From the NCBI GenBank assembly GCA_041179425.1, contig JBEGTL010000002.1, positions 1 through 50,571 of the forward strand: 50,571 nucleotides of DNA, written 5' to 3'. Under the pieces are notes generated by a model, which was not told where the DNA came from, made no database searches, and saw nothing but the letters and a program-made list of their open reading frames with translations. Made by a program: the position numbers and the translations under genes. This document shows, piece by piece, positions 8,072-45,645 of the stretch. This stretch comes from Pseudomonadota bacterium. GTDB taxonomy: Bacteria; Myxococcota_A; Polyangia; Polyangiales; DASUME01. Positions within the stretch are counted from its first letter, which is position 1. The number at the start of each line of letters is the position of its first letter.

Positions 8072-8536
8072 ATGAGCTCCAAACACGACGTCTTCCTGAG
8101 CCTGTACGCCCGCTACCCGGGAGTTTTCGTCCACTTCGACGGCTTCCACACAGAAGTAATCATCGGCGGGGCCAAGCGCTCCGAGGGCGTCGTCTTTCAG
8201 TACGGCAAGGCTCAGGCGCGGCCCATCCCGGACCTCGACGTAAACAGCCTTGGCATTCGCGGCACGCTGTCGTTCGGGGGCCAGCAGCACTGGACGTTCG
8301 TCCCGTGGCTGGCCGTGTGGGCAATCGCTGCTGAGGGAGCCCAAGACGGCGGCGTCTGGGCTGCGGACGTGCCCGAGCGCATGATGGCCGTTCTGAAGGA
8401 GAACGCGCAGCGCGCGAAGAAGCCGAAGTCGGACGTCCGCGAGCTCAAGGCCACCAAGGCTGGCGCGGTCTACGAGCGCGAAGACAACATCATCCGCCCG
8501 CGGTTCGGCGCGAAGCGCAATGACTTCTCGGCGTAA
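8072..8536 (+). CDS. SspB-like (ClpXP adaptor fold) protein
   Basis: GVVFQYGKAQARPIPDLDVNSLGIRGTLSFGGQQHWTFVPWLAVWAIAAEGAQDG parallels E. coli SspB IVLNIAPRAVGNLELANDEVRFNARFGGIPRQVSVPLAAVLAIYARENGAG. Confidence 0.45.
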   Translation: MSSKHDVFLSLYARYPGVFVHFDGFHTEVIIGGAKRSEGVVFQYGKAQARPIPDLDVNSLGIRGTLSFGGQQHWTFVPWLAVWAIAAEGAQDGGVWAADVPERMMAVLKENAQRAKKPKSDVRELKATKAGAVYEREDNIIRPRFGAKRNDFSA

Positions 8537-9236
8537 CACCCCCACCTCGCGAGCGCAGCTCGGCCCGCGCTCACCTGAGACCATCGCGCGGCGCTACGGC
8601 GCCGTCATGTCGGCCTTCAGCGCGCGCGCTCAGGCGCGCATCCAGAGCTGGATGGCGGAGGGCTCGGTGCTCGACCGCGTGCCTGCGCTGCGCGCGGACC
8701 TGTACGAGCTGGCCCAGCGCACGGAGAAGTCCGCGCGCGCGGTCGGAGCCGCCGTCACCCGCCTCGGCAGGGTCGACGTCGCGCGCATGCTACGCCTCAA
8801 GCCCATTCGCGGCTCGCACGAGGACGAGACTGCCTTCCTGGACCGCTGGTCGGAGCACCAGGTCGGCTTGCTGCGCAACGTCGTAGACAGGCAGCTGAAG
8901 GCCATCACGGACCCGATGGAGAACGACCCGCTCGGGAAGCTCTGGATTGTGCGCAACCACGCCCAGCTGGTCGCCCACAACGAGACCTTCGCCCTGAGCG
9001 ACGACGTCATCGGGTTCTGGTCGGCGCAGGCCGGCGAGGACGAGTACATCTGGCTGACCCGCGGCGACGACCGCGTGCGTCCCGGGCACGCCGTGCTCGA
9101 CGGCACGGTGCAGCGCAGCGACTCTCCGCCATTCACGGGGTCTCGCGAAGGCAACAACCACCCAGGGCACGCCCCCGGGTGTCGCTGCCAGCGCATGCCA
9201 CACCGGGCACTCGAGGTCGGGCGCCCGCTCCGGTGA
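8520..9236 (+). CDS. Head morphogenesis protein (Mu F / SPP1 gp7 family)
   Basis: RPGHAVLDGTV...PGHAPGCRCQ C-terminal signature. Follows the portal gene. Confidence 0.8.
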   Translation: MTSRRNTPTSRAQLGPRSPETIARRYGAVMSAFSARAQARIQSWMAEGSVLDRVPALRADLYELAQRTEKSARAVGAAVTRLGRVDVARMLRLKPIRGSHEDETAFLDRWSEHQVGLLRNVVDRQLKAITDPMENDPLGKLWIVRNHAQLVAHNETFALSDDVIGFWSAQAGEDEYIWLTRGDDRVRPGHAVLDGTVQRSDSPPFTGSREGNNHPGHAPGCRCQRMPHRALEVGRPLR

Positions 9237-9248
9237 TAGACTGAGGGC

Positions 9249-10958
9249 ATGGCAAGCTCGCTCGGCTCGATTCCCGAAGATTTCCCCATCCATGGCGTCT
9301 ACGAGTGCCCCCTGGTCGCCGAGCTGCCGTCGCTCATTTACGGCATGCGCGCGACCTTCCGCGAGCTCATCTGGGACGCGGAGGGAGGCTTCGCCGACGA
9401 CTGGCGCGACCGCAGCTCGGTCGAGGGCACGCCCGAGGACGGGTATACGTTCCGTATCAGCCGTCGGGCTTTCAGTGCGGCCAACATGGGCATCTTCGCC
9501 GCTGGCGCGGGCTCCGGTGGCGGTGGCGTTTCGGGCGGCGCAACCGTCGTCCTGGCGCTCGCGCCCGGCCTGAACTCGAACGTCGAGATTCCCGACGTCG
9601 CGACCGTGAGCGTGGTGGCCGCGACCGGCGACACCGACACGGTGCTCGACTCCATTCTGCGCCCGCCACCCGCTGGCGGAGGTGACCCCGAGGCCACCGA
9701 CTACCACTCGGTCATCTTCGTCAACGACCAGGCCACGAACTCACTCATCCTGCGCCCCGGCAAGGGCACGCCTTTCGCAGACCTCGTGACGCCCGACGGC
9801 GAGGACTACGTACTCGGCCCGCGCGAGGGCGCGGTGCTGGTATATCTGCACTACGTGAGCGCCTGGACCGTGCACCCGCTCGCCAAGCCCGACACCGGTG
9901 ACGCTGTCAGCCTCCACGGCACGGCAGTCCCCGCCCTGTCCGACGGTGTGCTGACGTCCGCAAGTGGAGTTCTGTCATGGGCGGCCGCTGCTGGCACCGG
10001 AGACGTCATCGGCCCGGCTGGTGCTGTGGCGGACCGCGTCGCCGTCTACAACGGCGCCACCGGCAAGCTCATCAAAGATGGCGGCAAGACGATTGCAGCG
10101 GTGGAGGCCAGCGCTGCAGCTACGGCAACCGCGGCCGCTGCCACGTACACCGACACCCACGGACTCTGGTTCACGGGTCTGGACACCGACTTCACTGTGC
10201 TACCTGCCCAGACCATCATCACCGGCGCGAACGTCATCGGTGGTAAGACGTGGACCGGCGTGGACATCGGTACGTACTCGAACTTGTTCGCCATCCAGCT
10301 GGGAGTCGGTCTGCAGATGAAGGCCAACGCGCTGAACAGCGGCATGTACAACACGTTCCGCACTATGTCCCACATCAAGATTCGCCTCTCTGACATCTGC
10401 CCTGGAATCCACTTGAAGTCGCGCGTGCGCATCACCGCGGTCCAGGAGACCACTGGGGAGACTGCGGGCTCCGAGGTCACGCAGGTGGCACTGGGCTCGT
10501 GGACCCACCACGCCACCGACGTCAGCATGGTGCGCCTGGTGAACGGCTTCATCACGGGAGCGAACCAGAACCGTGTCGACGGGTGGCGCACAAGCACGTA
10601 CGTGGACAATGACGACACGGCGCAGCCAGCCGCGAACCGTCAGGGGCAGATTCAGCTCGACTCCATCCCGGAGTGGCAGGGACACTTCCTGAGCTCCCCG
10701 TACACGCTCGCCACACCAGTGGTGTGGAACGACCCCAAGACGTTCGTCAAATCGAGGGGCTTCGACTTCCTGGCTAAGTACCGCGCAGTGCTCGGCGTTT
10801 CGGGAAACGGATTTCTGCAGACCAACTACGCTGACGCCCCGGTGAACCGCGATGTCACCGAACTGGCAGTGCTGGTGTCGGTGTCCACCGGCAACACCGC
10901 CAACAACACGTCATTGCTGGGGTCACTGCGGGCCCTCCGCATCGAGTACACAAAGTAG
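9249..10958 (+). CDS. Fibre-like structural protein encoded in the head module
   Basis: 569 aa. GPAGAVADRVAVYNGATGKLIKDGGKTIA is a motif common in phage fibre proteins. TAGACT lies 6 nt upstream of the ATG. Confidence 0.55.
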   Translation: MASSLGSIPEDFPIHGVYECPLVAELPSLIYGMRATFRELIWDAEGGFADDWRDRSSVEGTPEDGYTFRISRRAFSAANMGIFAAGAGSGGGGVSGGATVVLALAPGLNSNVEIPDVATVSVVAATGDTDTVLDSILRPPPAGGGDPEATDYHSVIFVNDQATNSLILRPGKGTPFADLVTPDGEDYVLGPREGAVLVYLHYVSAWTVHPLAKPDTGDAVSLHGTAVPALSDGVLTSASGVLSWAAAAGTGDVIGPAGAVADRVAVYNGATGKLIKDGGKTIAAVEASAAATATAAAATYTDTHGLWFTGLDTDFTVLPAQTIITGANVIGGKTWTGVDIGTYSNLFAIQLGVGLQMKANALNSGMYNTFRTMSHIKIRLSDICPGIHLKSRVRITAVQETTGETAGSEVTQVALGSWTHHATDVSMVRLVNGFITGANQNRVDGWRTSTYVDNDDTAQPAANRQGQIQLDSIPEWQGHFLSSPYTLATPVVWNDPKTFVKSRGFDFLAKYRAVLGVSGNGFLQTNYADAPVNRDVTELAVLVSVSTGNTANNTSLLGSLRALRIEYTK

Positions 10959-14376: not shown

Positions 14377-14916
14377 ATGGGCAAGACGGACAAACGCACC
14401 GCGGAGGAGCACCGCACCAAGTACAAGGAGTACTATCAGCGCGTCATCAAGCCGGTGAGAGAGGCTGCTAGGCCTCTGTGCAGCGCCCCCGGGTGCACGT
14501 CAAAAACCATATACATCCGCGGCAAGTTCTGCAAAGAGCACCGAGACCTCCAAGCACTAAAAGTGGTGGCGGACACCACCTCCTGGTACCACAAGAATCG
14601 CGAAAAGGTAACGGACCGGAGGCTGCAGCGGGCTTACGGAATCACCTTGAAGCAAGCTCGGGAGATGCTGGCTTCTCAGGGCGGTGTCTGCGCTATCTGC
14701 AAGAACTTGCTGGAGGACCAGGCGTGTGCAGGCAAGTCTCGAAGAGGCACGGTCATAGACCACTGCCACGAGACTGGACTCGTGAGGGGAGTCCTGTGCA
14801 GCTTGTGCAACAAAGGTTTGGGCCACTTCTCAGATAACCCTGAGTTTTTGGGCGCTGCCATAAGCTATCTGGCAGGAGCCACACAAAACCCTTGCCTCGG
14901 GGACGGCGCGCGCTAG
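14377..14916 (+). CDS. Recombination endonuclease VII family protein (free-standing)
   Basis: CAICKN...DHCHETGLVRGVLCSLCNKGLGHF signature. Codon usage is visibly less GC-rich than in its neighbours. Confidence 0.8.
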   Translation: MGKTDKRTAEEHRTKYKEYYQRVIKPVREAARPLCSAPGCTSKTIYIRGKFCKEHRDLQALKVVADTTSWYHKNREKVTDRRLQRAYGITLKQAREMLASQGGVCAICKNLLEDQACAGKSRRGTVIDHCHETGLVRGVLCSLCNKGLGHFSDNPEFLGAAISYLAGATQNPCLGDGAR

Positions 14917-15636: not shown

Positions 15637-15930
15637 ATGGCCGTCCCTGTCATCACCGTTGCCGCCTTCCTGGAGATGTTCCCCGAGTTCGAGGAAGCCG
15701 ACGAGGCACTCGTGCTCAAGCACATCGCCATGGCCGCCACGCGCACCGCCTCCGGCATCTACACCGCGGAGCAGCAGGAGCAAGCGGTCGGCCTGAAGGC
15801 GGCCACGCTGCTCTTGAAGAGCCCGTGGGCGCGCAAAGCGCGGCTGGTCGATGACACGCAGGCGTTCATCTGGGCGGGAGAGCTCTACGAGCTGCAGCGG
15901 TCCGCCACGATGGGCCTGCGCAACACCTAA
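15637..15930 (+). CDS. Head-tail connector-like protein (DUF4054-like)
   Basis: ITVAAFLEMFPEFEEADEALVLKHIAMA N-terminal pattern. TAGACT lies 5 nt upstream. Confidence 0.55.
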   Translation: MAVPVITVAAFLEMFPEFEEADEALVLKHIAMAATRTASGIYTAEQQEQAVGLKAATLLLKSPWARKARLVDDTQAFIWAGELYELQRSATMGLRNT

Positions 15931-16378: not shown

Positions 16379-17101
16379 ATGCTCAAGGTCAAGACCAAAG
16401 TAAAGGAGAAGGGCCCCGGCTTTGCGAAGCTCATCAGCGAGCTCGCGGGTGGCACCATCACCATCGGCGTGCAGGGCGAAGAGGCCACTATGCAGCACCC
16501 GAACACCGACCTCTCGGTGGGCGAGCTCGCGGCCGTGCACGAGCTCGGTCTGGGCGTCAAGGAGCGCTCGTGGCTCCGCAGCTGGTTCGACCAGAACCAG
16601 GCGCGCATCCAGGCCGAGACGCGCGCTGCGCTGGCGCAGGTGGCCGTCCGCCGCGTCTCGCGCAAGCAGGCACTCGAGGAGCTGGGCTACCGCTGGACCG
16701 ATGAGATTCGGGAGAACATCCAGATGGGCCGCATCACGCCCCCGCTCGCCCAGGCGACCATCGACGCCAAGGGTCACGACATCCCGCTCCTCGAGAGCGG
16801 CGTGCTGATGAACTCCATCACCTTTCGTCTGTTCCTTTCGCAAATCAAGAGCGTCGCTGACCCGTCGCTACGCGCTGCCCTGCGCGCGGGAGTGGCCCGC
16901 AAGAAGAAGACGCCCGGTGTGCGCATGCGCCAGCACCGTCAGGTGCGCTCCCAGATGGCGAAGGCGGCCAACCTACTGTGGATGTGGCGCAAGCTCAGGA
17001 AGGCGCTCACACAGAAGCGCGGCAGCGACTTCAGGAACCACGGCTTCAAGAACTCGGGGCGGGGCGGGCTCACCGGCCGCGCAGGTTTCCCTCGACGGTA
17101 G
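16379..17101 (+). CDS. Minor structural / head-tail joining protein
   Basis: 240-aa ORF in the connector region. The function is assigned from position only. Confidence 0.45.
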   Translation: MLKVKTKVKEKGPGFAKLISELAGGTITIGVQGEEATMQHPNTDLSVGELAAVHELGLGVKERSWLRSWFDQNQARIQAETRAALAQVAVRRVSRKQALEELGYRWTDEIRENIQMGRITPPLAQATIDAKGHDIPLLESGVLMNSITFRLFLSQIKSVADPSLRAALRAGVARKKKTPGVRMRQHRQVRSQMAKAANLLWMWRKLRKALTQKRGSDFRNHGFKNSGRGGLTGRAGFPRR

Positions 17102-19761: not shown

Positions 19762-21117
19762 GTGGCAGACGACATCAACAGCATCGTAGCGGTCGCCATT
19801 ACGGCGAACTCGAAGACGCCCTCCCAGGTTGGCTTCGGGACCCCCCTCATCCTTACCTATCACTCCGTGTTCGCTGACAACTACCGTGTTTACAGCGACG
19901 TCGCTGGCATGGTGAGCGACGGCTTCACGAGCTCGCACGAGGCGTACCGCAAGGCAGCGGCCGCGTTCGCGCAGAATCCCGCACCCGAGCAGGTTGTGGT
20001 CGGCCGCCTGACGTCGGCGCCCAGCTTCGTGACGCAGGTCAAGGTGACCTCCGCGGTCGAGGCCCAGCACATCAAGTTCAAGGTCATCGAGCCCGTCGCG
20101 GGCACCATCCAGCAAATCGACCGCACCATCCCCGCGGCGAGTTCGACCACGGCAGAAGCGACCGCCATAGAGATTCTCGTCGAGGCGTTTGCCGGCGTCG
20201 ACAGCTCGTCCTCTACCGACACCATCAGCATCACGCCCACCGTCGCTGGCCGCAAGGTCCACGTCTACGACTGCGTGAACTGCGCGGTCAAGGAAACCAC
20301 GGCGGACGCGAACTACTCCACCGTGCTCGACTCGCTCTCGACCGAGTACAACGATTGGTACTTCATCTCGCTCGACTCCGCCTCCCCCGCGAACGCCGCC
20401 GACGTGGCAGCGTGGGTGCTCGCGAACAAGAATGTGAACCCGAAGTTCTACTTCGTCGCCACCTCCGACACCGACCTACTCGCCGGCACGGCCACCTCGG
20501 GCACGTTCGGTGAGTTCGCAACGGCTGCGGAGTCCACCTCGAACGACCACGTGGTCTCGCTGTACGTGCCGAACTCGCAAGAGGGCGCGGACATCGCATG
20601 GGCATCGGTCATCGGCGTGCAGACCCCGGGCTCTATCACGGCAGCCCTCAAGACGCTCGTTGGCGTCACGCCGGGCTCGCTCACGACCACGCAGCGCACC
20701 AACCTCGAAGCCATCAACGTCAACCACTACCAGACCGTGCGCGGCCTGAATGTGACGCGTCAGGGCAAAGTCGGCAGCGGCGAGTGGATTGATGTGGTCC
20801 ACGGCATCGACGCGCTCAAGAGCGACCTCCAGGGCGCAGTGTTCGGGCTCCTCGCGGGCTCGGGCAAGGTGCCGTTCACGCCCGCCGGCCTGAACATCAT
20901 CGAGGCGACCATCAAGGGAGTGCTCAAGCGGTACGAGGGCTCGGACGACCAGCCCGGCCTCATCGCACCCAAGAGCTCGCGCGTGGTGATGCCGAAGTTC
21001 AGCACCATCACCACCACCGACAAGGCCAACCGCGAGCTCCGCAACGTTCGGTTCTCGGGCATCCTGGCGGGAGCGATTCAGTTCGTCTCGCTGCTCGGGA
21101 CGCTCACCAACGCCTGA
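19762..21117 (+). CDS. Tail sheath protein (DUF3383-like)
   Basis: 451 aa. N-terminus INSIVAVAITANSKTPSQVGFGTPLILT. A tube gene follows, after an inserted cassette. Confidence 0.75.
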   Translation: MADDINSIVAVAITANSKTPSQVGFGTPLILTYHSVFADNYRVYSDVAGMVSDGFTSSHEAYRKAAAAFAQNPAPEQVVVGRLTSAPSFVTQVKVTSAVEAQHIKFKVIEPVAGTIQQIDRTIPAASSTTAEATAIEILVEAFAGVDSSSSTDTISITPTVAGRKVHVYDCVNCAVKETTADANYSTVLDSLSTEYNDWYFISLDSASPANAADVAAWVLANKNVNPKFYFVATSDTDLLAGTATSGTFGEFATAAESTSNDHVVSLYVPNSQEGADIAWASVIGVQTPGSITAALKTLVGVTPGSLTTTQRTNLEAINVNHYQTVRGLNVTRQGKVGSGEWIDVVHGIDALKSDLQGAVFGLLAGSGKVPFTPAGLNIIEATIKGVLKRYEGSDDQPGLIAPKSSRVVMPKFSTITTTDKANRELRNVRFSGILAGAIQFVSLLGTLTNA

Positions 21118-21536
21118 AGATTGCTGGCGTAAGTAGCGCGCATCGCGCGCACGCCCCGCGCGCTCACACCCAGCTGCCTGGCCGTCTCTGTGGCGGTCAG
21201 GCCGTTGTGCTTGGCCCACTCGCGCTGCTCTGGCGTGAGCACGTACGCCTTCTTCGGTGCGCCGCCGCGCTTGGCGATGGCCGCCTGCCGCGAGCGCTCG
21301 CGCGCCTTCTCCGCGCGCCTGCGTTTTTTCTCGTCCCGTGCGAGTTCGACCTCGGGCGACTTCGGCCTACCAATGGTAGGTACGACGCCGTTGCGGCCGA
21401 ACACTCGGTGTTCGCTCGAGACCTGAGCCATGCGCGACTTGCGCAGCTCGTACGCCGCCAGCGCGACGTCGAACACGTTGCGCGCGTGCTCGTCGAACAC
21501 ACTTCCCACGTCTTCCCGCAAGTTTGCCCAGCTCAT
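21078..21536 (-). CDS. Reverse-strand HTH DNA-binding protein
   Basis: Good GC3. LTATETARQLGVSARGVRAMR is an HTH; basic KKRRRAEKARERSR stretch. The 3' end overlaps the sheath gene by 40 nt. Confidence 0.6.
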   Translation of the reverse strand: MSWANLREDVGSVFDEHARNVFDVALAAYELRKSRMAQVSSEHRVFGRNGVVPTIGRPKSPEVELARDEKKRRRAEKARERSRQAAIAKRGGAPKKAYVLTPEQREWAKHNGLTATETARQLGVSARGVRAMRATYASNLQALVSVPSSETN

Positions 21537-21571
21537 ACCCAGATGGTCGCCCAGCGCGCGCTACGCTGTCA

Positions 21572-21814
21572 ATGATGAACCGCCAGTCGCTACCCACGCG
21601 CATCCAGTACCGAGACGCCACCACGGGTGAGCTGGCCGTGACCGAGGTCTTCTACGGCGAGCACGAGGCTGAGGTGCAGGAAGCGCTCCTGAGGAATGCG
21701 GGGCACACCGACCTCATCCGCTACCGGGACATGGGCCAGTACCATCAGGGCTGTCACGGCTGGGGCAACCCGTACACCGGAATGCCGGCAGGCGTAGTGC
21801 GCCGTTCAATCTGA
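21572..21814 (+). CDS. Small hypothetical protein
   Basis: ATG 21572/21575 lies after TACGCT (21562-21567). Divergent from 21078-21536. Confidence 0.45.
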   Translation: MMNRQSLPTRIQYRDATTGELAVTEVFYGEHEAEVQEALLRNAGHTDLIRYRDMGQYHQGCHGWGNPYTGMPAGVVRRSI

Positions 21815-21856: not shown

Positions 21857-22318
21857 ATGGCGACCCCGCGTTTCACTACCTATTCGTTCAAGCAATACAC
21901 GATTGCGTTCGGTCCCATCATCATGGACGGCTACCAGGCCGGCGAAGGATGCACGGTCGAGCACAATGCTGACGCGTACACGATGGAAGTTGGCATCGAC
22001 GGCAAGGCAGTCCGTTCGCAGGTGCTCAACCGCTCCGCGCGCATCACCATCAACCTGAGCCAGACCTCGGCGTGCAACGACCTGTTGAGCGCCATCTATC
22101 TGCTCGGCGTGACCGGCCAGGACGCGAACGGCGTGCCGGTCGGCCCCGGTGCGGACGTGATGCCCTTCATCATTCGCGACAACAACGGCCGGTCCGTGTT
22201 CACCGCGGCCGAGAGCTGGATTGCCCGCGCGCCAGACCTCTCGCTCGACCAGCCGTCCACGAATCGTGCTTGGGTGTTCGACGTCGCCTTCCTCGACGAG
22301 TTCCACGGCGGCAACTAA
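21857..22318 (+). CDS. Tail tube protein (DUF3277-like)
   Basis: 153 aa, position after the sheath gene. GTGCTAGGCT at 21820-21829 lies upstream. Confidence 0.65.
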   Translation: MATPRFTTYSFKQYTIAFGPIIMDGYQAGEGCTVEHNADAYTMEVGIDGKAVRSQVLNRSARITINLSQTSACNDLLSAIYLLGVTGQDANGVPVGPGADVMPFIIRDNNGRSVFTAAESWIARAPDLSLDQPSTNRAWVFDVAFLDEFHGGN

Positions 22319-22319
22319 C

Positions 22320-22847
22320 ATGCGCGCGCTGCTCGCGTTGCTGTTCGCTCTGTTCGTCGGCTGCGCGAGCCCGAGCATGGAGCGACCTGACGAGATGGGC
22401 GAGAGCGCCCACTGGTGCGCAGAGGAGCGCCCTGCGCACGTCATCGTGTCGGACGCCATGCCGGACGAGTGCGTGCTTGGACTCGAGGCTGCGCTGGCCT
22501 TCTGGGCGCACGATGGCCACGTCGGCTACGTGACGTTCGCGGTGGTGCCCGACGTGAGCCTGACGCCGGGACACCCGAACCCTCTCTTCATCCAGGTGGT
22601 GACCACGCCGCCCGAGGACCCTGGCGCCAGCGGCGACACGCGCGTGCACCGCATCACCGCCGACTGCATCGACTCGGCAGAGGTTCGGCTCGACCCGTAC
22701 TACTGCAGCAAGGGCAACACCGAGGCGCACGAGCTCGGGCACGCCCTGGGGTTGTCGCACGTTGACAGCCAGAGCAACCTGATGTGGCCCGCCAGCTACC
22801 CCGGCAAGTTCGGACTCACGCCCGCGCAGCTGGCTCAGGTCAAGTAG
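22320..22847 (+). CDS. Lipoprotein zinc metalloprotease, matrixin (M10)-like
   Basis: MRALLALLFALFVGC is a signal peptide with a lipobox-like end. AHELGHALGLSHVDSQSNLMWP gives HExxHxxGxxH plus a Met-turn. Confidence 0.7.
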   Translation: MRALLALLFALFVGCASPSMERPDEMGESAHWCAEERPAHVIVSDAMPDECVLGLEAALAFWAHDGHVGYVTFAVVPDVSLTPGHPNPLFIQVVTTPPEDPGASGDTRVHRITADCIDSAEVRLDPYYCSKGNTEAHELGHALGLSHVDSQSNLMWPASYPGKFGLTPAQLAQVK

Positions 22848-23056
22848 CCGCGTCGCGGGTACCCTTCGGGCAGCTTGGTGGCCTGGACCTCCTTCTCCCA
22901 CTCGGTCGCCTTCGCGTACTTCAGGCTGTTGAGCGCGAGCACCGCGGCGTCGCGAGCGCAGTCGGCGGCGACCTCGGGGTGGTTGCGCTCGCGGATGCGC
23001 TGGACGAACTCGGTGGCGTACACGGACGCCCACAGGAGCTGCTCGGGAGTGTTCAT
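22835..23056 (-). CDS. Small reverse-strand hypothetical protein (73 aa)
   Basis: Good GC3. TAGCAT lies 6 nt upstream of the ATG on the minus strand. Confidence 0.55.
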   Translation of the reverse strand: MNTPEQLLWASVYATEFVQRIRERNHPEVAADCARDAAVLALNSLKYAKATEWEKEVQATKLPEGYPRRGYLT

Positions 23057-23062
23057 CCCCCG

Positions 23063-23072
23063 ATGCTACGCT
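23063..23072. promoter_or_regulatory. Overlapping divergent -10-like hexamers in a 22-bp intergenic region
   Basis: ATGCTACGCT: TACGCT (23067-23072) lies 6 nt before ATG 23079. On the minus strand TAGCAT (23068-23063) lies 6 nt before ATG 23056. Confidence 0.45.
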
Positions 23073-23078
23073 CACCAG

Positions 23079-23765
23079 ATGTCCTCTGTCCATGCTCTTT
23101 GTGTCCACGGTGTCGGCGACAAGACGCCCAGTAACTTCGCAGACAAAGCCATGAAGTGGCTGTCGGGTGCGCTCTCCGCGCGCGGCGTCACCCTGTACGC
23201 CAACTCCGTGCACTGGGGCCCGCTGCTCGACCGCCACCAGGAGAAGATGGAACGCGCGGTCGCGCGCGAAGGCAGCTCGAACCGCATGCTGCAGCGCGCG
23301 GGTATGAGCGTGGGCGGCGACGCCCTGAGCTACCGCTACTCCCAAGACGCCATCAACTTGCTGTTCGACTACGAGTACAGCAGCCTGCGCGCGGACGACG
23401 TCATCATCTTCTCGCACTCTCTCGGATGCGTGCTCGCCACCGACTGGATGCGCTCGCGGCGCCTGGCGCGGGTCTCCCAGCTCGTCACGCTCGGGTGCAA
23501 CCTGGAGGCCTTCAACCAGAACAACGAGGCGCAGTGGGCCGCCGAGTGCCCGTGGCAGGTGCGCGGGCCGCGCACGTGGACCAACTGCTTCGACGCCCAG
23601 GACATGCTCGGGTGGCCGGTGCGGCACTGGCTGCCGTGGGTTCGCGACGTCGAGGTGGACGTCGGCGGGCTGCTCACCCGGTGGTGGGGCGTCAGTCACA
23701 TGGGTTATTGGACTGACCGCACCCTTTGGCGCGAGACCGTTCCACGCCTCATCCTTGGCGCGTAG
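23079..23765 (+). CDS. Alpha/beta-hydrolase (esterase/lipase-like)
   Basis: N-terminal VHGVGD. Nucleophile-elbow-like FSHSLGC. 228 aa, starting within track ORF 22875-23765. Confidence 0.55.
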   Translation: MSSVHALCVHGVGDKTPSNFADKAMKWLSGALSARGVTLYANSVHWGPLLDRHQEKMERAVAREGSSNRMLQRAGMSVGGDALSYRYSQDAINLLFDYEYSSLRADDVIIFSHSLGCVLATDWMRSRRLARVSQLVTLGCNLEAFNQNNEAQWAAECPWQVRGPRTWTNCFDAQDMLGWPVRHWLPWVRDVEVDVGGLLTRWWGVSHMGYWTDRTLWRETVPRLILGA

Positions 23766-24171
23766 AGGCCAAATACTTCTCGTACGGCTCTAGACGCAAA
23801 CCCGCGGGCCTCTGACGCCTCTCGTACATACCGAGGGTGATGTTGCAGATGTTGCACAAGAAACCACGCACCAGTCCCGACCCGTGGTCATGGTCCAAGT
23901 GCTCCTGCTTGGTGTTAGGGACCAGCGACGCCGGGCAGATGGCGCAGCGGCCGTGCTGCAGCTCCCGCAGCTTATCGGCCATCTCTGGCGTGCAACCCAT
24001 GCGCGTACGTCGGCGCTCGGTCGTTTGCAGGCGGTTGCGCTCCCTTTGCTCCGGCGTTTTCCTCTGCCTGGTGGCGTCGTAAGTCTTCATGTAGTCGCGA
24101 TAGTAGTGTTTTTTGCACAGACGTTTGGCCGCGATATCGGTACGGTCACAGCCGGGGGCTTGGCACTGCAT
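23749..24171 (-). CDS. Recombination endonuclease VII family protein (second copy, reverse strand)
   Basis: CAICPA...DHDHGSGLVRGFLCNICNITLG. Start chosen at MQCQAPGC; the ORF is open to 24237. Confidence 0.75.
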   Translation of the reverse strand: MQCQAPGCDRTDIAAKRLCKKHYYRDYMKTYDATRQRKTPEQRERNRLQTTERRRTRMGCTPEMADKLRELQHGRCAICPASLVPNTKQEHLDHDHGSGLVRGFLCNICNITLGMYERRQRPAGLRLEPYEKYLASTRQG

Positions 24172-24227: not shown

Positions 24228-24671
24228 ATGAGCGCACTATTGTCCACCACTCCGGTCGAAATCAACGGCCGCACCTACCAGATTCGCCCACTCGCGTTCG
24301 CGGACGCCCGCCAGGTCTACGCCAAGATGCAGCGCTTGCTCGCGCTCCACGGCGACGAGGCGGTCACCGAGTCCAAGTGCGGGCTGTTCCTGTTCGCCGG
24401 CCTCATCGGGGCCATCAACGATGACGACCTCAAGTTCTTCATCGACAAGTTCGGCCCCACCACCGTGTGCGCGCTCGACGCGCAGCGCACGCTCCCGCTG
24501 ACCACGGACGAGCACCGCAGCAACGTGTTCGCCGGCTGCTTCGAGGAATGTCTGGCCTGGCTCGATGCTTGCGTGGACGTCAACTACGCGGGCGTCATGG
24601 CAAAACTCGGCGCCGCCAAGACCGCCCTGGAGGCCAAGGTCGAAGCGGCGAAGGCGAAGCCGAAGTCCTGA
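24228..24671 (+). CDS. Tail assembly chaperone (G-like)
   Basis: Position between tube and tape measure. The -1 frame stays open downstream. Confidence 0.6.
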   Translation: MSALLSTTPVEINGRTYQIRPLAFADARQVYAKMQRLLALHGDEAVTESKCGLFLFAGLIGAINDDDLKFFIDKFGPTTVCALDAQRTLPLTTDEHRSNVFAGCFEECLAWLDACVDVNYAGVMAKLGAAKTALEAKVEAAKAKPKS

Positions 24672-24884: not shown

Positions 24885-26501
24885 ATGTCCGGAGTCCTTC
24901 GAGATATCGTCGCACGCTTCAGCGTCCAGGTGGACGACAAGCCGCTCACCAAGCTGGAGAAGTCTCTCAAGCGGGCGCGCGAGTCGGTCAACACCATGGG
25001 CACGTACGTGGCCAGCGGCTTCGTGGCTGCCGCTGGAGCCGCGTACTACTTCACCGAGGCGGCGTCGCGCGCGGAGGAGACGCTCAACGTCATCAACCAG
25101 ACGTTCGGCAAGAACAGCGACGCTGTGGTGGCGTGGTCCAAGACGCTGGCCAAAGAGGTTGGCCGCTCCGAGTACACGCTGCAGAGCGCAGCGTCGGAGT
25201 TCGGCGCCTTCCTGAGCCCTAAGTTCGAGGACAAGAACGTCGTCACGAAGATGTCCGAGGACTTGTCCAAGCTCGGCGTGGACCTCGCGTCGTTCTACAA
25301 CACCTCCGACTCCGAAGCGCAGATGCGCCTGATGAGCGGTCTCTCGGGCGAGACCGAGGCCGTCCGTAAGCTGGGCGTGGACATCAGCGACGAGGCGCTC
25401 AAGGCGCTCTACAACAGCGACGAGAGCTCGGTGAAAAAGGGCGGCCAGTACAAGGCGCTGTCCATCGCGGACAAGACGCTGCTGCGCTTTCAGAAGATTC
25501 TGAAGGACACGCAGGAGAAGCAGGGCGACGTGCAGCGCACCGCACAGGGCTGGGCGAACTCCATGAAGCGTGTGACCGAACGCTGGAAGACCTTCAGCGT
25601 CACGCTCGGCAAGCTCACCCAGAAGGTGATGCTGCCGCTGCTGCACAAGTTCGAGAAGTACACCCCCACTCTCGAGTCGCTCATCCTGAACAGCTCCGCG
25701 CTCGACTCCGGCCTCAAGCTGCTGGCCGTCTCGGGCGGCGTGCTGCTGGCCGCGTTCGTGGCCCTCAACTTCCCCGCGGTGGTGCTGGCGACGACGTTGG
25801 GCGCTGTGGTGCTCGCGTTCGAGGACGTGCTCACGCTGCTCGACGGCGGACAGTCCATCATCGGCGACTTCATCAAGGAGCTGACCGGGACCAACGACCC
25901 GCTCGACAAACTGGGCGACTGGACCAACGATTTCATCGGCGTCATCGACATTCTGACCGGCACCCTCTACGACCTCGCGGAGAACATCGCAGGAGTAGTC
26001 ACGGGCAGCGCTCTGCTCAACGGCTTCACCACCGAGCACGGGGACGCAGCCACGGCGCGCGCGACGCAGCGCTACCGGACCAAGAACGACCTGGAGGCAT
26101 CGCAGCGCGAGCAGCGCATCGCTGCCGCTGCGAAGGGTGACCAGGGCGCGTGGGAGGCCACGTTCGCGGGCCACACGAAGCCAGACAACATGCAGGCCGC
26201 TTTCAAGGCGGACTTCCTGCAAGGGTTCACCTCCGGTCAGGTCACGGACGTGGGCACCATGGACCGCGCAGTCGCGAGCGGCTTCGTGTCCCAGTCGTTC
26301 TCCAACCAGTGGCGCAACGAGATGGAGGCCCCGAGCTGGGCGCAGGGTGGCAGCGCAGCGGGCGGAGCCCCCGGAGCCGTCACCATCCAGAACAACGTCA
26401 CCGTCACCGGCATCGGCAAGGATGCTGTCAAGGCGGGCCTCGATGAGGCAAACCGCGCTGCGCTTGCCAGGGTCTCCGAAGAGAAGGGCAAAAAGCAGTG
26501 A
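24885..26501 (+). CDS. Tail tape measure protein
   Basis: 538 aa, helical, with hydrophobic central segments. Follows the chaperone. TAAGCT lies 5 nt upstream. Confidence 0.75.
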   Translation: MSGVLRDIVARFSVQVDDKPLTKLEKSLKRARESVNTMGTYVASGFVAAAGAAYYFTEAASRAEETLNVINQTFGKNSDAVVAWSKTLAKEVGRSEYTLQSAASEFGAFLSPKFEDKNVVTKMSEDLSKLGVDLASFYNTSDSEAQMRLMSGLSGETEAVRKLGVDISDEALKALYNSDESSVKKGGQYKALSIADKTLLRFQKILKDTQEKQGDVQRTAQGWANSMKRVTERWKTFSVTLGKLTQKVMLPLLHKFEKYTPTLESLILNSSALDSGLKLLAVSGGVLLAAFVALNFPAVVLATTLGAVVLAFEDVLTLLDGGQSIIGDFIKELTGTNDPLDKLGDWTNDFIGVIDILTGTLYDLAENIAGVVTGSALLNGFTTEHGDAATARATQRYRTKNDLEASQREQRIAAAAKGDQGAWEATFAGHTKPDNMQAAFKADFLQGFTSGQVTDVGTMDRAVASGFVSQSFSNQWRNEMEAPSWAQGGSAAGGAPGAVTIQNNVTVTGIGKDAVKAGLDEANRAALARVSEEKGKKQ

Positions 26502-33681: not shown

Positions 33682-34617
33682 ATGGCCAAACCCGTTTCGA
33701 ACTTCAACTGGGCGTCCAACGCTAACTACGCGACGGGACCGGACAACGGCACCGCCACCAAGGTAGCGCCGAGCTCGGGCGACATTCAGAACGGCTTCAT
33801 CCGCAACACGGCCGCCATCGCTCAGACCATGAACTGGGTATTGGGGACGGCCATCAAGGAGTGGCTGACCTACCTAGCGGGCCTAGCGGCCGACTCCGAG
33901 TTCCTGGCAGACCTGGAAGCGCGCGCCTGGGACTTCGACAACACCGTGCACGTGGACGGCGCCTTCACGACGTCGAGCACCGCAACCATCGCCGGCACGC
34001 TGACCGCCAGCGGCGCAGCGCACGTCATCGGCAGCCTGGACGTGGACACCGACCTCAACGTGGACGGCCTCGCTGTCATCGACGGAACGGCCCTCATCAG
34101 CGGCAACACCACGCTGGGCGGCACGCTGACCATGCCGTCGCGCACCGTCACGCGCGCCATCCCCCTCACGTTCTCCACCGGCGCGTACAACAACGCAGGA
34201 GTGCACCAGCCACAGGGCTACCTGAACAAGCAGGGCATCCACTTCTGGGGCGACGACCTGGGCGGCCAATACTTCCGCCCGAACATGTCGTTCACCATTC
34301 CGCGTGGCTGCACGCTGACCCAGGTGTCGCTGGTCGGCGCGAAGGCAGCGGCCGCGTCCACTGACCCGTCGGTCACCCTGTACCTCGCTGTCGGCAACAG
34401 CGTCGACAACACGACCACCAACAAGGGTTCGACCACGCTCAACAGCACCACGGGCAGCCAGCGCACCATCACGGTGAGCTCGCCGGTGGTTTCTGACCAG
34501 TTCACGCAGTACGTCATCGAGCTCGTCCCGTCGCAAGGCTCGGGCTCCGGCGACACCGACCGCATCGCGTGGATTGACATCTCGTACACGACCACCCACG
34601 CTGACGAGAACGTGTAA
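33682..34617 (+). CDS. Tail fibre protein
   Basis: The N-terminus NFNWASNANYATGPDNGTATKVAPSSGDIQNGF is typical of fibres. TAGAGT lies 7 nt upstream. Confidence 0.6.
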   Translation: MAKPVSNFNWASNANYATGPDNGTATKVAPSSGDIQNGFIRNTAAIAQTMNWVLGTAIKEWLTYLAGLAADSEFLADLEARAWDFDNTVHVDGAFTTSSTATIAGTLTASGAAHVIGSLDVDTDLNVDGLAVIDGTALISGNTTLGGTLTMPSRTVTRAIPLTFSTGAYNNAGVHQPQGYLNKQGIHFWGDDLGGQYFRPNMSFTIPRGCTLTQVSLVGAKAAAASTDPSVTLYLAVGNSVDNTTTNKGSTTLNSTTGSQRTITVSSPVVSDQFTQYVIELVPSQGSGSGDTDRIAWIDISYTTTHADENV

Positions 34618-34961
34618 TGTCCTACCGTGACGACGAGTCTACGCCCATGAACCGTGCGCCTTCTCTCATGTCCGTGGCGGTCGACGTCGCGCGCACCCGC
34701 GAACAGGTAAAGTACCTCGTGGAGCGCATCGACGACCGTGAGGAACAGCAGAAGGCTCGTGACGAGCACTTCCGTGAGTCCATGCGTCTCGTGGTACGCG
34801 AGGCCGTAGAGGAAGCCGTGGAGGCGCACGTAGCCCCGCTGGCGGCCAAGGTCGAAGGGCTCGAGAAGTCCAAGCTCAAGCTGGGCGCCATCGCTGGCGC
34901 AGCGGGCGCTCTACTGCCGCTGCTCGGTTGGTGCGCGGAGCACTTCCATTGGTTCCTCTGA
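34617..34961 (+). CDS. Coiled-coil protein with C-terminal transmembrane anchor (lysis-associated candidate)
   Basis: LGAIAGAAGALLPLLGWCAEHF is a hydrophobic tail. Lies directly before the endolysin gene. Confidence 0.45.
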   Translation: MSYRDDESTPMNRAPSLMSVAVDVARTREQVKYLVERIDDREEQQKARDEHFRESMRLVVREAVEEAVEAHVAPLAAKVEGLEKSKLKLGAIAGAAGALLPLLGWCAEHFHWFL

Positions 34962-34981: not shown

Positions 34982-35452
34982 ATGAGCCGCTTTCGTTCCG
35001 ATGAAATCACGCTGCTACTCCCGAGCTTCCAGCCGTACGTGCAGGCCGTGCTCGACGACATGACCGCGCAGGGATTCAAGCCCATCCTATTCGACGGTCT
35101 GCGGACGCCAGCCGAGGCGCTGCGCAACGCCAAGCGCGGCACCGGCAAGGTGCAATCGCCGCACCTGTACGGGCTCGCCGCAGACGTCATCTGCGATGAC
35201 CACGGGTGGAGCTGCCGCGAGAAGAAGTGCAAGTTCTACGCGAAGCTCGTGGCCGCCGTGCGCTCGCGCGGGCTCATCACCGGCGCAGACTTCCACAACG
35301 CGCAGGGCAAGCCCATGGTCGACGAGCCGCACTTCCAGGGCCTGCCGCCCGCGCAGGAGCGCAAGGTGCGTGAGCTCGGCATGAGCGACGAGTCCATCCC
35401 CGAGCGCGATGCTATCGTCGCCGCTTGGCTGAAGCAGCACGCTAAGCTCTGA
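34982..35452 (+). CDS. Peptidase M15 (VanY/D-Ala-D-Ala carboxypeptidase-like) endolysin
   Basis: The SPHLYGLAADV motif and a C-terminal HFQ motif. TAGGCT lies 7 nt upstream. Confidence 0.75.
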   Translation: MSRFRSDEITLLLPSFQPYVQAVLDDMTAQGFKPILFDGLRTPAEALRNAKRGTGKVQSPHLYGLAADVICDDHGWSCREKKCKFYAKLVAAVRSRGLITGADFHNAQGKPMVDEPHFQGLPPAQERKVRELGMSDESIPERDAIVAAWLKQHAKL

Positions 35453-35678
35453 GTACCTGACGCAGCGCGCGCACGTTGTTGCGCTCGCACAGCAGCGCGA
35501 TGGTGTCGCACTGCTCGTCGAACTCTGCGCGGTTGTTGTGCTCGAAGCTCCTGAGCATCTTGAAGCGGCTGGAGCCGTTGGTAGTGAGGTCCAGCAGCTC
35601 GGTGTACCAGAAGGTGTCACCGTCTTCATCCGCGTCGATGAAGCGCCGCACGATGTCGCGGTTGTCGATGGCAGTCAT
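35442..35678 (-). CDS. Hypothetical protein (78 aa)
   Basis: ATGA overlap with the upstream minus gene. Convergent 11-nt overlap with the endolysin gene. Confidence 0.45.
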   Translation of the reverse strand: MTAIDNRDIVRRFIDADEDGDTFWYTELLDLTTNGSSRFKMLRSFEHNNRAEFDEQCDTIALLCERNNVRALRQVLRA

Positions 35679-35842
35679 CCGCAGCTGCCCCGACACTCGG
35701 TGGAGCAGATGCTGTGGCCGGCGGGGTCGATGCGACACTTGGTGTGGCAGATGCAGCGAAGCCCGCGCTCCGCGTGGACAGGCTGCACGGGGAAGCACTG
35801 CACACTACAGAGCGCGAGCATCAGTAGAAACTTGGTCCTCAT
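35675..35842 (-). CDS. Secreted cysteine-rich mini-protein (55 aa, 8 Cys)
   Basis: AGGAGG lies before ATG 35842. MRTKFLLMLALCSVQCFPVQPVHA is signal-like, followed by ERGLRCICHTKCRIDPAGHSICSTECRGSCG. Confidence 0.5.
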   Translation of the reverse strand: MRTKFLLMLALCSVQCFPVQPVHAERGLRCICHTKCRIDPAGHSICSTECRGSCG

Positions 35843-35862
35843 AGGCCCCTCCTGTGGAGGAG

Positions 35863-35976
35863 CTACAGGGCTCCGTCCATCCAAGCCAACCATATCAAGA
35901 CCACTGACCAGAACGCAACAGCAATCACTCCGGCCACTGCGTATTCGGTGAGGCGCCACTTCAGCATCTTATTCAT
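35863..35976 (-). CDS. Tiny single-pass membrane protein (37 aa)
   Basis: MNKMLKWRLTEYAVAGVIAVAFWSVVLIWLAWMDGAL. Overlaps the upstream stop. Confidence 0.4.
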   Translation of the reverse strand: MNKMLKWRLTEYAVAGVIAVAFWSVVLIWLAWMDGAL

Positions 35977-43701: not shown

Positions 43702-43710
43702 GCTCTGCTG

Positions 43711-45645
43711 GTGCCCATTCAGGTCTCCAGCAAGCTGAAAAAAAAACGTGACGAGTTCACGGCCACGGAAGAAGCTTCCCGCGAAGAGAAGCTCACCGAG
43801 GTGCCTGATGAGGCCGAGCTGCTCCGCATTCTGACGATGGCTCGACGGGAGGTCCCTGACCCCGAGAGCCCAGAAGCGGAGCAGCTCGCCGCGTTCATGA
43901 CGGGCAAGCTCGCCAAGTTGCCCATCGCGCAGCTCTACCCGGGCCCGTTGATGGCCACGCAGGCGCTCGCCCTGCGCGAGGGTAAGGTCTGCAAGGGCGG
44001 CTTCTTCCCCATCGTGGTGGGCGGCGGTAAGATGCTCACGTGTTACCTGATGGCCGCGCTCTACCTGGCGGCTGGCTACACGCGCATCATCTACGTCATC
44101 CCTGGCGACATGCGCAAGACGGTGAAGCGCGAGTTCAAGAAGTACCGCCAGTGCTGGCACGGGCCCACCGAGCTGCAGCTGCGTGTCGTCTCGTACGAGG
44201 AAATCTCCAACGAGGCGAACGCAGAGGAGCTCGACGACCACGGGCGCGTCACCAAGCCGTCGCTGCTAGACAAGCTGCAGCCTCAGGTCGTCATCTTCGA
44301 CGAGGTGCACAACACCTCGAACACCGGCGCTGCTGTCACCAAGCGCATGAACCACCGCATGCGCCGCGCGCCCGACACCATCTGCCTGGCGTTCACGGGC
44401 ACGCCCTTCAACGAGGGCATCCAAGACGCCGCGCACATCCTGGACTGGTGTCTCAAGGAGAACAGCCCTCTGCCCCGCCCGAGCGTGCGCGGCACGTACA
44501 AGACTCTGCAGGCGTGGGGAGGCTACCTCAACGCCAAGGAGGGCTTCGGCCGCGTGGAGCTCGGCGCGCTCGCGCGCTACGGCGAGCTGTACGATGAAGA
44601 CCTCGACGTCTACAACGCGGATGCGGACTACCAGAACGAGATGATGCACCGCGTGCGCCGCCTAGTGGCGAGACGCATCCTGGAGACGCCTGGCGTCATC
44701 GGCACGCGCGACGCACCGCTGGACGTCCCGCTCACCATCGAGCCCTTGTACCCCCGCCTCGACTGCGCGGACACCGCTGTTGCGTATGCCGCGATGATGA
44801 ACGAGGGCGTGCTGCCCGACGGCACCGAGCAGCCCGATGACATCTCGGTGGCCCGCCACCTGAGCACCATGGGCTACAACTTCTGGTCCAAGTGGGTGCC
44901 GGACCCGCCACAGGAGTGGAAGCTCGACCGCAACGGCTGGAACAAGTGGTGCAGGCGCGCGCTCAAGTACAACAAGCACCGCCTGACGTCGGAGAAGACC
45001 GTCAAGAACGCCATCAAGAAAGGCCTCTACAAGGAGGTCGGCCTGCCCACGCTGCAGCGCTGGGAGAACAGCGCGCGCCTGTACTTCGAGACCACCGGCA
45101 ACAAGGAGCCGCCATCGCAGCCCCAGTGGCTGGGCGACGGCGCCGAGGTGGTCGACGCGTGCCGGCACTGGCTCTCCAAGTACGGCGACCGTGGTCTCAT
45201 CTGGGTCAAGCACATCGGGCTCGGCGAGCTGCTGTCGAAGGAGCTGGGCATACCGTACTACGGCGCGGGTGGCGGCAAGAACTCCAAGACGGGCGTGCTT
45301 ATTATGGACCACCCCGGTGGCCCTGCCATCGCCTCCATCGACGCGTGCGGCACCGGCAAGAACCTGCAGTATCTGTTTTCGGACAACTTGTGGCTTTGCA
45401 TACCGGGGGAGCAATCCCTGGCGCGCACTCACCGCATGGGGCAGCCGGCCAAGGTAGTGCGGAACTTTATCTACCTGGGATGCTATCAGCACTTGGCCGC
45501 GTTCGAGAGAGCTCGAGACGTGAAGGCGACGTTCGCCGAGGACATGACACTCAGCCCCCAGAAGCTGAAGTATGCGCACACTGTGATGCCCTCTGCGGGC
45601 GAGCTGCGGCAGCGCGGCGGAGCTCGCTGGGAGCAACGTTTTTGA
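43711..45645 (+). CDS. SNF2/DEAD-like superfamily 2 helicase
   Basis: VVGGGKML is P-loop-like; VVIFDEVHNT is DExH. CGTGKNLQ and LARTHRMGQ are SNF2 motifs V/VI-like. TAAGCT lies 6 nt before the GTG. Confidence 0.75.
   Translation: MPIQVSSKLKKKRDEFTATEEASREEKLTEVPDEAELLRILTMARREVPDPESPEAEQLAAFMTGKLAKLPIAQLYPGPLMATQALALREGKVCKGGFFPIVVGGGKMLTCYLMAALYLAAGYTRIIYVIPGDMRKTVKREFKKYRQCWHGPTELQLRVVSYEEISNEANAEELDDHGRVTKPSLLDKLQPQVVIFDEVHNTSNTGAAVTKRMNHRMRRAPDTICLAFTGTPFNEGIQDAAHILDWCLKENSPLPRPSVRGTYKTLQAWGGYLNAKEGFGRVELGALARYGELYDEDLDVYNADADYQNEMMHRVRRLVARRILETPGVIGTRDAPLDVPLTIEPLYPRLDCADTAVAYAAMMNEGVLPDGTEQPDDISVARHLSTMGYNFWSKWVPDPPQEWKLDRNGWNKWCRRALKYNKHRLTSEKTVKNAIKKGLYKEVGLPTLQRWENSARLYFETTGNKEPPSQPQWLGDGAEVVDACRHWLSKYGDRGLIWVKHIGLGELLSKELGIPYYGAGGGKNSKTGVLIMDHPGGPAIASIDACGTGKNLQYLFSDNLWLCIPGEQSLARTHRMGQPAKVVRNFIYLGCYQHLAAFERARDVKATFAEDMTLSPQKLKYAHTVMPSAGELRQRGGARWEQRF

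Follow-up and report, generated by a model that had tools for sequence, protein, structure and literature searches.

A lipoprotein metzincin and an alpha/beta hydrolase at a mosaic tail-operon site of an uncultured myovirus as candidate lysis-accessory enzymes

Here we consider the four open reading frames (ORFs) that lie between the tail tube gene and the tail assembly chaperone gene on a phage contig of 50,571 nucleotides, the whole of which we refer to as the window. The window is the entire contig C2 of an 8.4-Mb, 833-contig metagenome-assembled genome (MAG), and is the genome of an uncultured myovirus, probably incomplete. An earlier note on this DNA described the four ORFs as a 1.9-kb accessory island containing a matrixin-like lipoprotein protease, an antisense mini-gene, a hydrolase and an EndoVII nuclease; the coordinates, strands and motifs that it gave are as we find them, and guanine-plus-cytosine (GC) content at third codon positions (GC3) is 0.77-0.93 for all four, the same bias as in the neighbouring genes. 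We call the protease METZ, the hydrolase HYD, the mini-gene rev73, and a coiled-coil protein with a transmembrane (TM) helix, encoded further downstream, ccTM; loci from related phages are designated by L numbers. The features are as follows.

21857..22318, plus strand: tail tube gene, left flank (PF11681, 1.7e-13; phrog_280, 1e-32)
22320..22847, plus strand: METZ, a predicted 175-residue lipoprotein, matrixin-like metzincin (Pfam M10, family profile, AlphaFold2 model and Foldseek)
22835..23056, minus strand: rev73, a 73-residue orphan ORF (GC pattern; a single homologue in L068)
23079..23765, plus strand: HYD, a predicted 228-residue alpha/beta hydrolase (AlphaFold2 and Foldseek fold; invariant catalytic residues)
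23749..24171, minus strand: EndoVII-type (HNH-fold) free-standing endonuclease (PF02945, 7e-17; phrog_2914, phrog_2633)
24228..24671, plus strand: tail assembly chaperone, the right flank (weakly matched by phrog_1613; all relatives have a syntenic homologue)
24885-26501: tape measure gene, after the chaperone
34617..34961, plus strand: ccTM, a 114-residue coiled-coil protein with a C-terminal TM helix (matches the N-terminal part of sister-phage metzincin fusions)
34982..35452, plus strand: endolysin, Peptidase_M15_4 (PF13539, 3e-6)

The METZ start codon lies 1 nucleotide past the TAA stop of the tube gene, as read across the junction. Its N-terminus, MRALLALLFALFVGC, carries a signal peptide that ends in the lipobox FVGC with Cys15, a residue at least 90% conserved among homologues. 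By the lipobox criterion METZ is a predicted lipoprotein and signal peptidase II substrate, the Phe at position -3 lying outside the strict [LVI] consensus given in PMC6139136. No other ORF of the window, in any frame searched, has a credible lipobox, so that no o-spanin or u-spanin is visible there. Between METZ and its counterpart in L068 there are 18 synonymous and six non-synonymous codon changes (seven and three for the tube gene), a pattern that indicates purifying selection on METZ. A METZ homologue (51% identical) is also found at L008:6001-6531 within the head/connector module, flanked by homologues of the window genes at 15637-15930 and 16379-17101, and this position in another module suggests that the METZ gene is mobile between modules.

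The mature part of METZ has the marks of a metzincin. The zinc-binding motif HExxHxxGxxH is present as HELGHALGLSH at residues 137-147, its HELGHALGL portion is invariant, and H137, E138, H141 and G144 are unchanged in 15 homologues; the Met-turn LMWP, in which L154 and M155 are invariant, aligns with the 'ALMYP' segment of MMP-1. At 25.9 bits, METZ clears the Pfam Peptidase_M10 (PF00413) threshold of 24, in an alignment that covers only 25 residues of the active-site segment (profile positions 111-135), and an NCBIfam search gave sub-threshold metzincin matches only. A profile built from the 15-member family matches the active site and Met-turn of MMP-1 with an E-value of 5e-7. The AlphaFold2 model, with a predicted local distance difference test score (pLDDT) of 86, has karilysin, matrix metalloproteinases (MMPs) and fragilysin as its top Foldseek matches (E ~1e-5, probability 1.0, template modelling scores 0.45-0.58). 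Two hallmarks of the M10A family are lacking: the third His is followed by Val (SHV) instead of Ser, and no PRCGxPD-like segment precedes the catalytic domain. Because both the Ser and the cysteine-switch propeptide are missing, METZ is better described as matrixin-like than as a strict member of M10A.

HYD has no signal peptide. Its oxyanion HG(V)G (residues 10-13), its nucleophile elbow SHS114LG, Asp175 and His207 outline the catalytic site, and H10, G11, G13, S114, G116, D175 and H207 are invariant over 50 family representatives, down to ~24% identity. In profile searches, Abhydrolase_6 of Pfam scores 18 bits, below its cut-off of 26.3, and the HYD sequence profile has no match in the Protein Data Bank (PDB). 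The AlphaFold2 model (pLDDT 88) adopts an alpha/beta-hydrolase fold, for which Foldseek returns lipase, KAI2 and cutinase folds in the PDB (probability 1.0), and alpha/beta hydrolases and LysB, including a Gordonia LysB, in BFVD. HYD is, on these grounds, a predicted cytoplasmic and divergent alpha/beta hydrolase, whose Ser-Asp-His triad is assigned from conserved residues. Its family is large (1,851 representatives at E <= 1e-3) and takes in uncharacterised cellular proteins, for example in Citrifermentans. The catalytic motifs that the earlier note had picked out thus hold up, those of METZ in profile, structure and conservation tests and those of HYD in fold and conservation. PHROGs holds no family for METZ, HYD, rev73 or ccTM.

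As regards the start of HYD, a longer version from 22875 was rejected, as homologues do not share the extension, and GC1 is lower than GC2 in that frame; the public gene call begins 24 codons further in, leaving out the conserved HG strand. The start codons of rev73 and HYD are 22 bp apart (spacer 23057-23078) and neither has a Shine-Dalgarno sequence; there are -10-like hexamers, TAGCAT on the minus strand and TACGCT on the plus strand. From the spacing of these hexamers, both messenger RNAs would be leaderless, with predicted starts at 23056 and 23079.

To ask what normally occupies the interval between tube and chaperone, we retrieved the regions around METZ and HYD homologues and mapped the window proteins onto them. 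Some loci are paired: L023 is the same phage as L011/L015, and L067 belongs to the same record as L018/L019. The genes between tube and chaperone, with identity to the window, are these.

L068 (contig 94% identical in DNA): METZ, rev73, HYD, contig end
L002/L069 (tube 79%): METZ, HYD
L005-7/L070 (tube 78%): METZ, reverse 313-residue methyltransferase, HYD
L013 (tube 80%): reverse 150-residue HNH nuclease, HYD, reverse small membrane ORF
L014 (tube 42%): reverse 292-residue ORF, HYD
L011/L015 (tube 47%): gap of ~400 bp, HYD
L018/L019 (tube 40%): HYD

HYD is directly upstream of the chaperone in all the high-GC relatives examined (L002, L005, L011, L013, L014 and L018), and METZ is found at the tube site, beyond the window, only in L002, L005 and L068. 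This synteny presents HYD as a fixed resident of the site in the high-GC lineage, with METZ as an occasional neighbour. Further afield, in Hafnia phage Meifeng and in a Pseudobdellovibrionaceae MAG locus, the tube leads straight to the chaperone, in keeping with the earlier note's premise that the two genes are normally adjacent; the premise does not strictly hold for Pseudomonas phage 254, in which a second tube gene and a baseplate gene separate them.

The two reverse-strand genes tell a different story from the enzymes that they accompany. rev73 is an intact ORF, convergent with METZ (13-nucleotide overlap) and divergent from HYD (22-bp spacer), whose GC1/2/3 values of 0.65/0.46/0.93, with GC1 above GC2, favour the minus frame. 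Searches of Pfam, PHROGs, NCBIfam and PADLOC assign it to no family; it is absent from L002, L005, L011, L013 and L014, and has a single homologue, 86% identical and at the same position in L068; between the two, six synonymous and 10 non-synonymous changes with no third-position bias give no pattern of purifying selection. rev73 is probably a fast-evolving orphan gene. The fourth ORF scores 61.5 bits against PF02945 (cut-off 23.6, E 7e-17), and fills the gap between HYD and the chaperone, overlapping the 3' end of HYD by 17 nucleotides; this gap is 462 bp in the window versus 18 bp in L002. Going by its domain score and its presence/absence polymorphism at an intergenic site, it is classed as an EndoVII homing-type nuclease. 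It is 32% identical to a second copy in the window at 14377-14916, and genes of the EndoVII and HNH types are also found between other genes in the window phage and its relatives. Both rev73 and EndoVII are private to the window phage and its 94%-identical sister L068, whose contig ends at HYD. The slot between tube and HYD holds other reverse genes elsewhere: a 150-residue HNH nuclease at L013:2790-3242 (minus), a 313-residue S-adenosylmethionine (SAM) methyltransferase at L005:6447-7388 (minus) and a 292-residue Cys-cluster ORF at L014:5073-5951 (minus). A different reverse gene per relative marks this slot as an insertion hotspot, filled mostly by selfish genes.

The stretch is therefore not a single island, as HYD is fixed in the high-GC relatives, METZ is present in some of them and the reverse genes vary; it is a mosaic of two co-oriented enzyme genes and two unrelated selfish or orphan inserts. 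Nor did the nuclease deliver the enzymes, as the earlier note had proposed, since L002/L069 and L005/L070 have METZ and HYD at the site without EndoVII, and EndoVII and HNH genes are scattered elsewhere.

What the earlier note missed is that, in sister phages, METZ and HYD both sit in the lysis cassette. In L023 a tail fibre gene is followed by a 256-residue ORF, the C-terminal 155 residues of which comprise a lipobox and a metzincin, and then by the M15 endolysin; in L022 as in L023, the METZ-like gene lies immediately upstream of an M15 endolysin. In L020 the order is a HYD homologue (39% identity), an ORF that joins ccTM to a metzincin, and an M15 endolysin. In L067 the M15 endolysin gene begins inside the gene for a 176-residue lipoprotein metzincin (PF00413, 1.4e-9), and a METZ-like gene is directly 5' of an Amidase_2 endolysin in L052. 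L017 runs from HYD through a 146-residue ccTM homologue (E 4e-10) and a 172-residue ORF to a CHAP endolysin.

The coiled-coil protein ties these arrangements to the window. There, ccTM is directly upstream of the endolysin and matches residues 10-101 of the L023 fusion ORF (41% identity, E 3e-14), as well as L020, L017 and a 122-residue gene of L070 (E 4e-27). ccTM and the metzincin form one in-frame ORF at L020:3617-4432, L021:3809-4510, L023:3638-4408, L044:3776-4402 and L052:3536-4393, and the lipobox of these fusions is internal, downstream of the first TM helix. Internal ribosome-binding sites that would split the fusions were considered and rejected, as none is seen before the internal starts. 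Among phages with METZ at the tube site, the window and L070 have a stand-alone ccTM before the endolysin, and L069 has there a 91-residue protein of ccTM-like architecture. In L011/L023, METZ is absent from the tube site and is carried beside the endolysin, fused to ccTM; in L018/L067 the metzincin stands alone beside the endolysin. For this complementary distribution of METZ and ccTM, the simplest history would be that METZ left the lysis cassette for the tube site in the sub-lineage to which the window belongs.

The link between small metzincins and endolysins extends beyond these relatives. Scanning IMG/VR for HELGHALG yielded 46 loci with small metzincins of ~175-200 residues, mostly with lipobox N-termini and across 32-70% GC. 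A marine group of 21 loci, at ~44% GC, has the metzincin just downstream of a PG_binding_1 plus Amidase_2 endolysin; the two genes are neighbours in most of the loci, and in L058/L063 the endolysin is two genes away. Scored with three queries, an endolysin is present within ~1.5 kb in 26 of 47 metzincin loci (the 46 plus L067), and adjacency recurs in roughly five independent groups with three endolysin types. If every 60-100 genes include about one endolysin, chance adjacency would, by our informal estimate, be of the order of a few percent.

The setting in which these enzymes would act can be drawn from the phage and its MAG. At 66% GC, the window holds a myovirus gene set that includes a terminase with a LAGLIDADG intein, a portal, a DUF3383 sheath, a PhiTE/KPP10-type tube, tape measure and baseplate genes, the M15_4 endolysin, RusA and a helicase. 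Neither a tRNA nor a terminal repeat was detected in the window, for which reason completeness is unproven, and the genomes of relatives span 57-64 kb. Its cultured kin are distant: a 6.9-kb region gave zero blastn matches among 50,697 phage records, and the tube proteins of the nearest cultured phages are ~30% identical to that of the window. A tube-alignment profile found only one locus, 29% identical, in genome contigs, and thereby nothing on prophages or hosts. Ten local proteins have no homologue elsewhere in the MAG, so that the contig is not a duplicated prophage and its genes are without a host paralogue. Contig C286 of the MAG carries, at 9106-9892, a clustered regularly interspaced short palindromic repeat (CRISPR) array of at least 11 copies of the 36-nucleotide repeat CTTTCCGAGACCTGAGCGTCTCGGCCCCATTGAAGC, running off the contig end, and its first two, leader-proximal spacers match the window at 8418-8454 (95%) and 43705-43743 (97%), which links the MAG lineage to the phage as its host. 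Among the MAG proteins are six of the Omp85/BamA family and two LolA, and the host is thus a diderm with lipoprotein sorting.

Taken together, we posit that METZ and HYD are lysis-accessory enzymes that degrade the envelope, and that METZ moved next to HYD in what is now a mosaic stretch; we give this reading a probability of roughly 0.55. The most likely role of the pair would be a lysis-accessory one, a view that rests on gene neighbourhood; action on the host envelope, already suggested in the earlier note, is the best supported of the roles considered. METZ and HYD are co-oriented with the late tail operon. METZ would be made late, exported by Sec and lipidated at Cys15, after which the Lol pathway would place it in the periplasm or outer membrane of the diderm host, and HYD would build up in the cytoplasm and reach the envelope only once the holin fires, as canonical endolysins and LysB do. 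Together with the M15 endolysin, the two could break down the proteins and ester-linked lipids by which the outer layers are tethered, and so help or substitute for the spanin step. Precedents for such a scheme are the LysB esterase (PMC5707550, PMC6116114), the phages that lyse without spanins and the phiKT disruptin (PMC6139136; bioRxiv 10.1101/515445), and the phage-derived metzincin of Listeria (PMC8235301). On the evolutionary side, METZ would have shifted from the lysis cassette to the side of HYD, leaving its former fusion partner ccTM stand-alone upstream of the endolysin, and rev73 and EndoVII would be later, independent insertions into a variable slot. What the data establish is the identity and fold of the gene products, the conservation of their catalytic residues, the synteny, the fusion and the link to the host; the localisation, substrates and timing of METZ and HYD, and any role in lysis, are what we infer.

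Several observations pull the other way. In the window and in most relatives the HYD gene belongs to the tail operon rather than to the lysis cassette, and this usual position keeps a virion or entry role alive; in L017 it follows tail-fibre genes, so that assignment to a lysis cassette is ambiguous there; and in Pfam and PHROGs it has no sequence similarity to LysB. The ccTM-metzincin fusions, with their internal lipobox, have a topology and processing that this reading does not explain. A secreted Cys-rich mini-protein, conserved between the window (35675-35959) and L023 (5215-5454) and encoded on the minus strand in both, is convergent with the endolysin; its signal peptide closes with VQC or VRC, then FPV, which is no lipobox, and this protein could be the real outer-membrane disruptor. 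As the contig is probably incomplete, spanins may lie outside the window. In the wider survey, ~21 of the 47 metzincin loci have no nearby endolysin by the three queries, and the 26 positive loci include one large group of closely related marine phages, which brings the independent lineages down to about five.

Could METZ, HYD or both instead be virion-associated tail enzymes that digest envelope proteins or lipids at entry? HYD lies between tube and chaperone in eight related phage loci, co-oriented with structural genes; the near contact of METZ with the tube stop suggests co-expression with an abundant tail protein; and HYD of L017 follows a pectate-lyase-like fibre gene. The lipoprotein signal of METZ, however, would take it out of the cytoplasm, where tails assemble, and in other phages the same genes are found beside the endolysin and in fusion with a membrane protein. 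Distant cultured relatives make the same tail without METZ or HYD, and neither protein shows homology to known tail, baseplate or ejection proteins in PHROGs or Pfam, which agrees with the view in the earlier note that these are not standard virion-assembly genes; an entry function seems to us unlikely. Apart from spanin components, phage lipoproteins are classically exclusion factors, such as T5 Llp and phi80/N15 Cor, and METZ could belong with them as a superinfection-exclusion or receptor-destroying lipoprotein, cleaving an outer-membrane receptor and so blocking both secondary infection and the loss of progeny on debris, with HYD in an unrelated metabolic or signalling role. Export, predicted lipidation, conservation and mobility between genome positions, the L008 head-module site included, would all suit such a factor. 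We know of no exclusion lipoprotein that is a protease, however, and placement in the late operon would protect little early in infection. The repeated immediate adjacency to three endolysin types and the fusion to an endolysin-neighbouring membrane protein would also be left unexplained, and we consider exclusion an improbable function.

A role in counter-defence or signalling, in which the hydrolase destroys an immune or quorum signal and the protease cleaves a defence protein, draws on the likeness of the HYD fold to KAI2/D14-type alpha/beta hydrolases that act on small molecules, and on the cellular members of the wider HYD family. The Foldseek matches of HYD are generic for the fold, though, and a PADLOC search of the local proteins gave nothing relevant; the genes occupy late-operon or lysis-cassette positions and not early regions, and METZ is predicted to be periplasmic, where known defence effectors are mostly cytoplasmic. 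Such a role is very unlikely. As for a single four-gene island acquired horizontally and delivered by an EndoVII homing nuclease, a mobile-type gene does stand at the edge of the stretch and distant cultured relatives have no insert at the site. Against these stand L002 and L005, which have METZ and HYD without EndoVII or rev73; L013, L014, L011 and L018, which have HYD without METZ; the different reverse genes that the slots hold in different phages; and a base composition that matches the rest of the phage, all of which make this history scarcely credible.

The lysis-accessory reading can be carried further, to a proposal that is possible but, as it stands, rather doubtful. Small lipoprotein metzincins, alone or with HYD, might be undescribed enzymatic disruptors of the outer envelope that replace spanins in many uncultured diderm phages. 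They would derive from an ancestral ccTM-protease polypeptide, its ccTM part holin-like or spanin-like, cut by signal peptidase II at the internal lipobox, and the window would represent a derived, uncoupled state in which METZ has come under the strong translation signal of the tail tube.

Other features of the window deserve mention in their own right. At 21078-21536 (minus) and 21524-21814 (plus), a reverse-strand regulator-like gene sits between sheath and tube, a position kept in every relative with data (118-342 residues), with a faint HTH_23 match in L013 and a Sigma70_r2 match in L014. The gene may encode a conserved transcription factor that lies antisense within the tail operon. The terminase large subunit (3583-6132, plus strand, 849 residues) has a LAGLIDADG_3 / Hom_end segment at residues 297-361, as an intein-type insertion. 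A 353-residue protein at 49277-50338 (plus strand) ends in a MazZ-type dATP/dGTP diphosphohydrolase N-domain (PF18909, 7e-16), of a type found in phages that modify the nucleotide pool, and no PurZ-like match is present in the scanned neighbouring ORF.

It remains to set these proteins against systems already known. The fourth gene, for a putative homing-type nuclease, resembles free-standing nucleases of the T4 endonuclease VII type (PF02945) in being intergenic, reverse-oriented and polymorphic between sisters, and differs by an N-terminal CxxC extension. With the matrixins (MEROPS M10A; karilysin of Tannerella forsythia, PDB 4in9 and 2xs3; MMP-1), METZ shares HExxHxxGxxH and the fold, with LMWP at the Met-turn in place of the matrixin LMYP. 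Unlike them, it has only ~160 mature residues, no cysteine-switch propeptide, Val after the third His, an N-terminal lipoprotein anchor and four conserved cysteines, and is phage-encoded. A metzincin of phage origin is known from Listeria monocytogenes, in which Mtz-Tim pairs a phage-derived secreted metzincin with a TIMP-like lipoprotein (PMC8235301), and in which cells expressing Mtz have an altered envelope, become more sensitive to phage lysins and release more virions (PMC8235301). The likeness is one of description, and the differences are plain: the host is monoderm, the protease is secreted and it is the partner that is the lipoprotein, and the genes, part of a phage remnant rather than of a lysis cassette, are controlled by a CI/Cro switch.

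For HYD, the natural comparison is mycobacteriophage Lysin B, a mycolyl-arabinogalactan esterase (PMC5707550, PMC6116114). LysB is a signal-less Ser-Asp-His alpha/beta-hydrolase, encoded in or near the lysis cassette, that attacks the lipid layer outside the peptidoglycan after the holin has acted. HYD is likewise a signal-less alpha/beta hydrolase, with a lysis-cassette position in L017 and L020 and the Gordonia LysB among its fold matches in BFVD. It differs in lacking Pfam or PHROGs homology to LysB, in facing a BamA/Lol diderm host that is not mycolate-bearing, and in its tail-operon position in the window. By analogy HYD may work like LysB, without being a member of that family.

In diderms, the last lysis step belongs to spanins (lambda Rz/Rz1, T1 gp11) and to the phiKT disruptin gp28 (PMC6139136; bioRxiv 10.1101/515445). 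Lipoprotein genes are rare in phages (Kongari et al., PMC6139136), spanins are lacking in 91 of 677 phages of Gram-negative hosts, or about one in seven (PMC6139136), and only one alternative to them has been characterised, the cationic peptide that is the phiKT disruptin (bioRxiv 10.1101/515445). An o-spanin is an outer-membrane lipoprotein encoded beside the endolysin, paired or overlapping with a coiled-coil membrane protein, and METZ recalls it as the only lipoprotein predicted in the window and, in relatives, as fused or adjacent to a coiled-coil TM protein by the endolysin. The pair does not make a two-component spanin, however: METZ is a folded enzyme of ~160 residues and not a short Pro-rich peptide, with no known membrane-fusion features, and the coiled coil of ccTM is N-terminal to its TM helix, the opposite order to an i-spanin. 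What emerges is a candidate enzymatic route through the outer envelope, a Lol-sorted zinc protease with a LysB-like hydrolase, which can be put to the test, and whose tie to the endolysin consists of adjacency in at least five phage groups and a gene fusion. Were it true, it would provide a new class of lysis protein and new envelope-active enzymes, and would explain more than 40 unannotated IMG/VR genes outside the coverage of PHROGs. The result also counsels caution in annotation, as lysis genes can scatter into structural operons and an apparent island can be residents plus selfish inserts. The known kinds to which these proteins come closest are lysis accessory enzymes and metzincins; an enzymatic substitute for spanins would be the bolder possibility.

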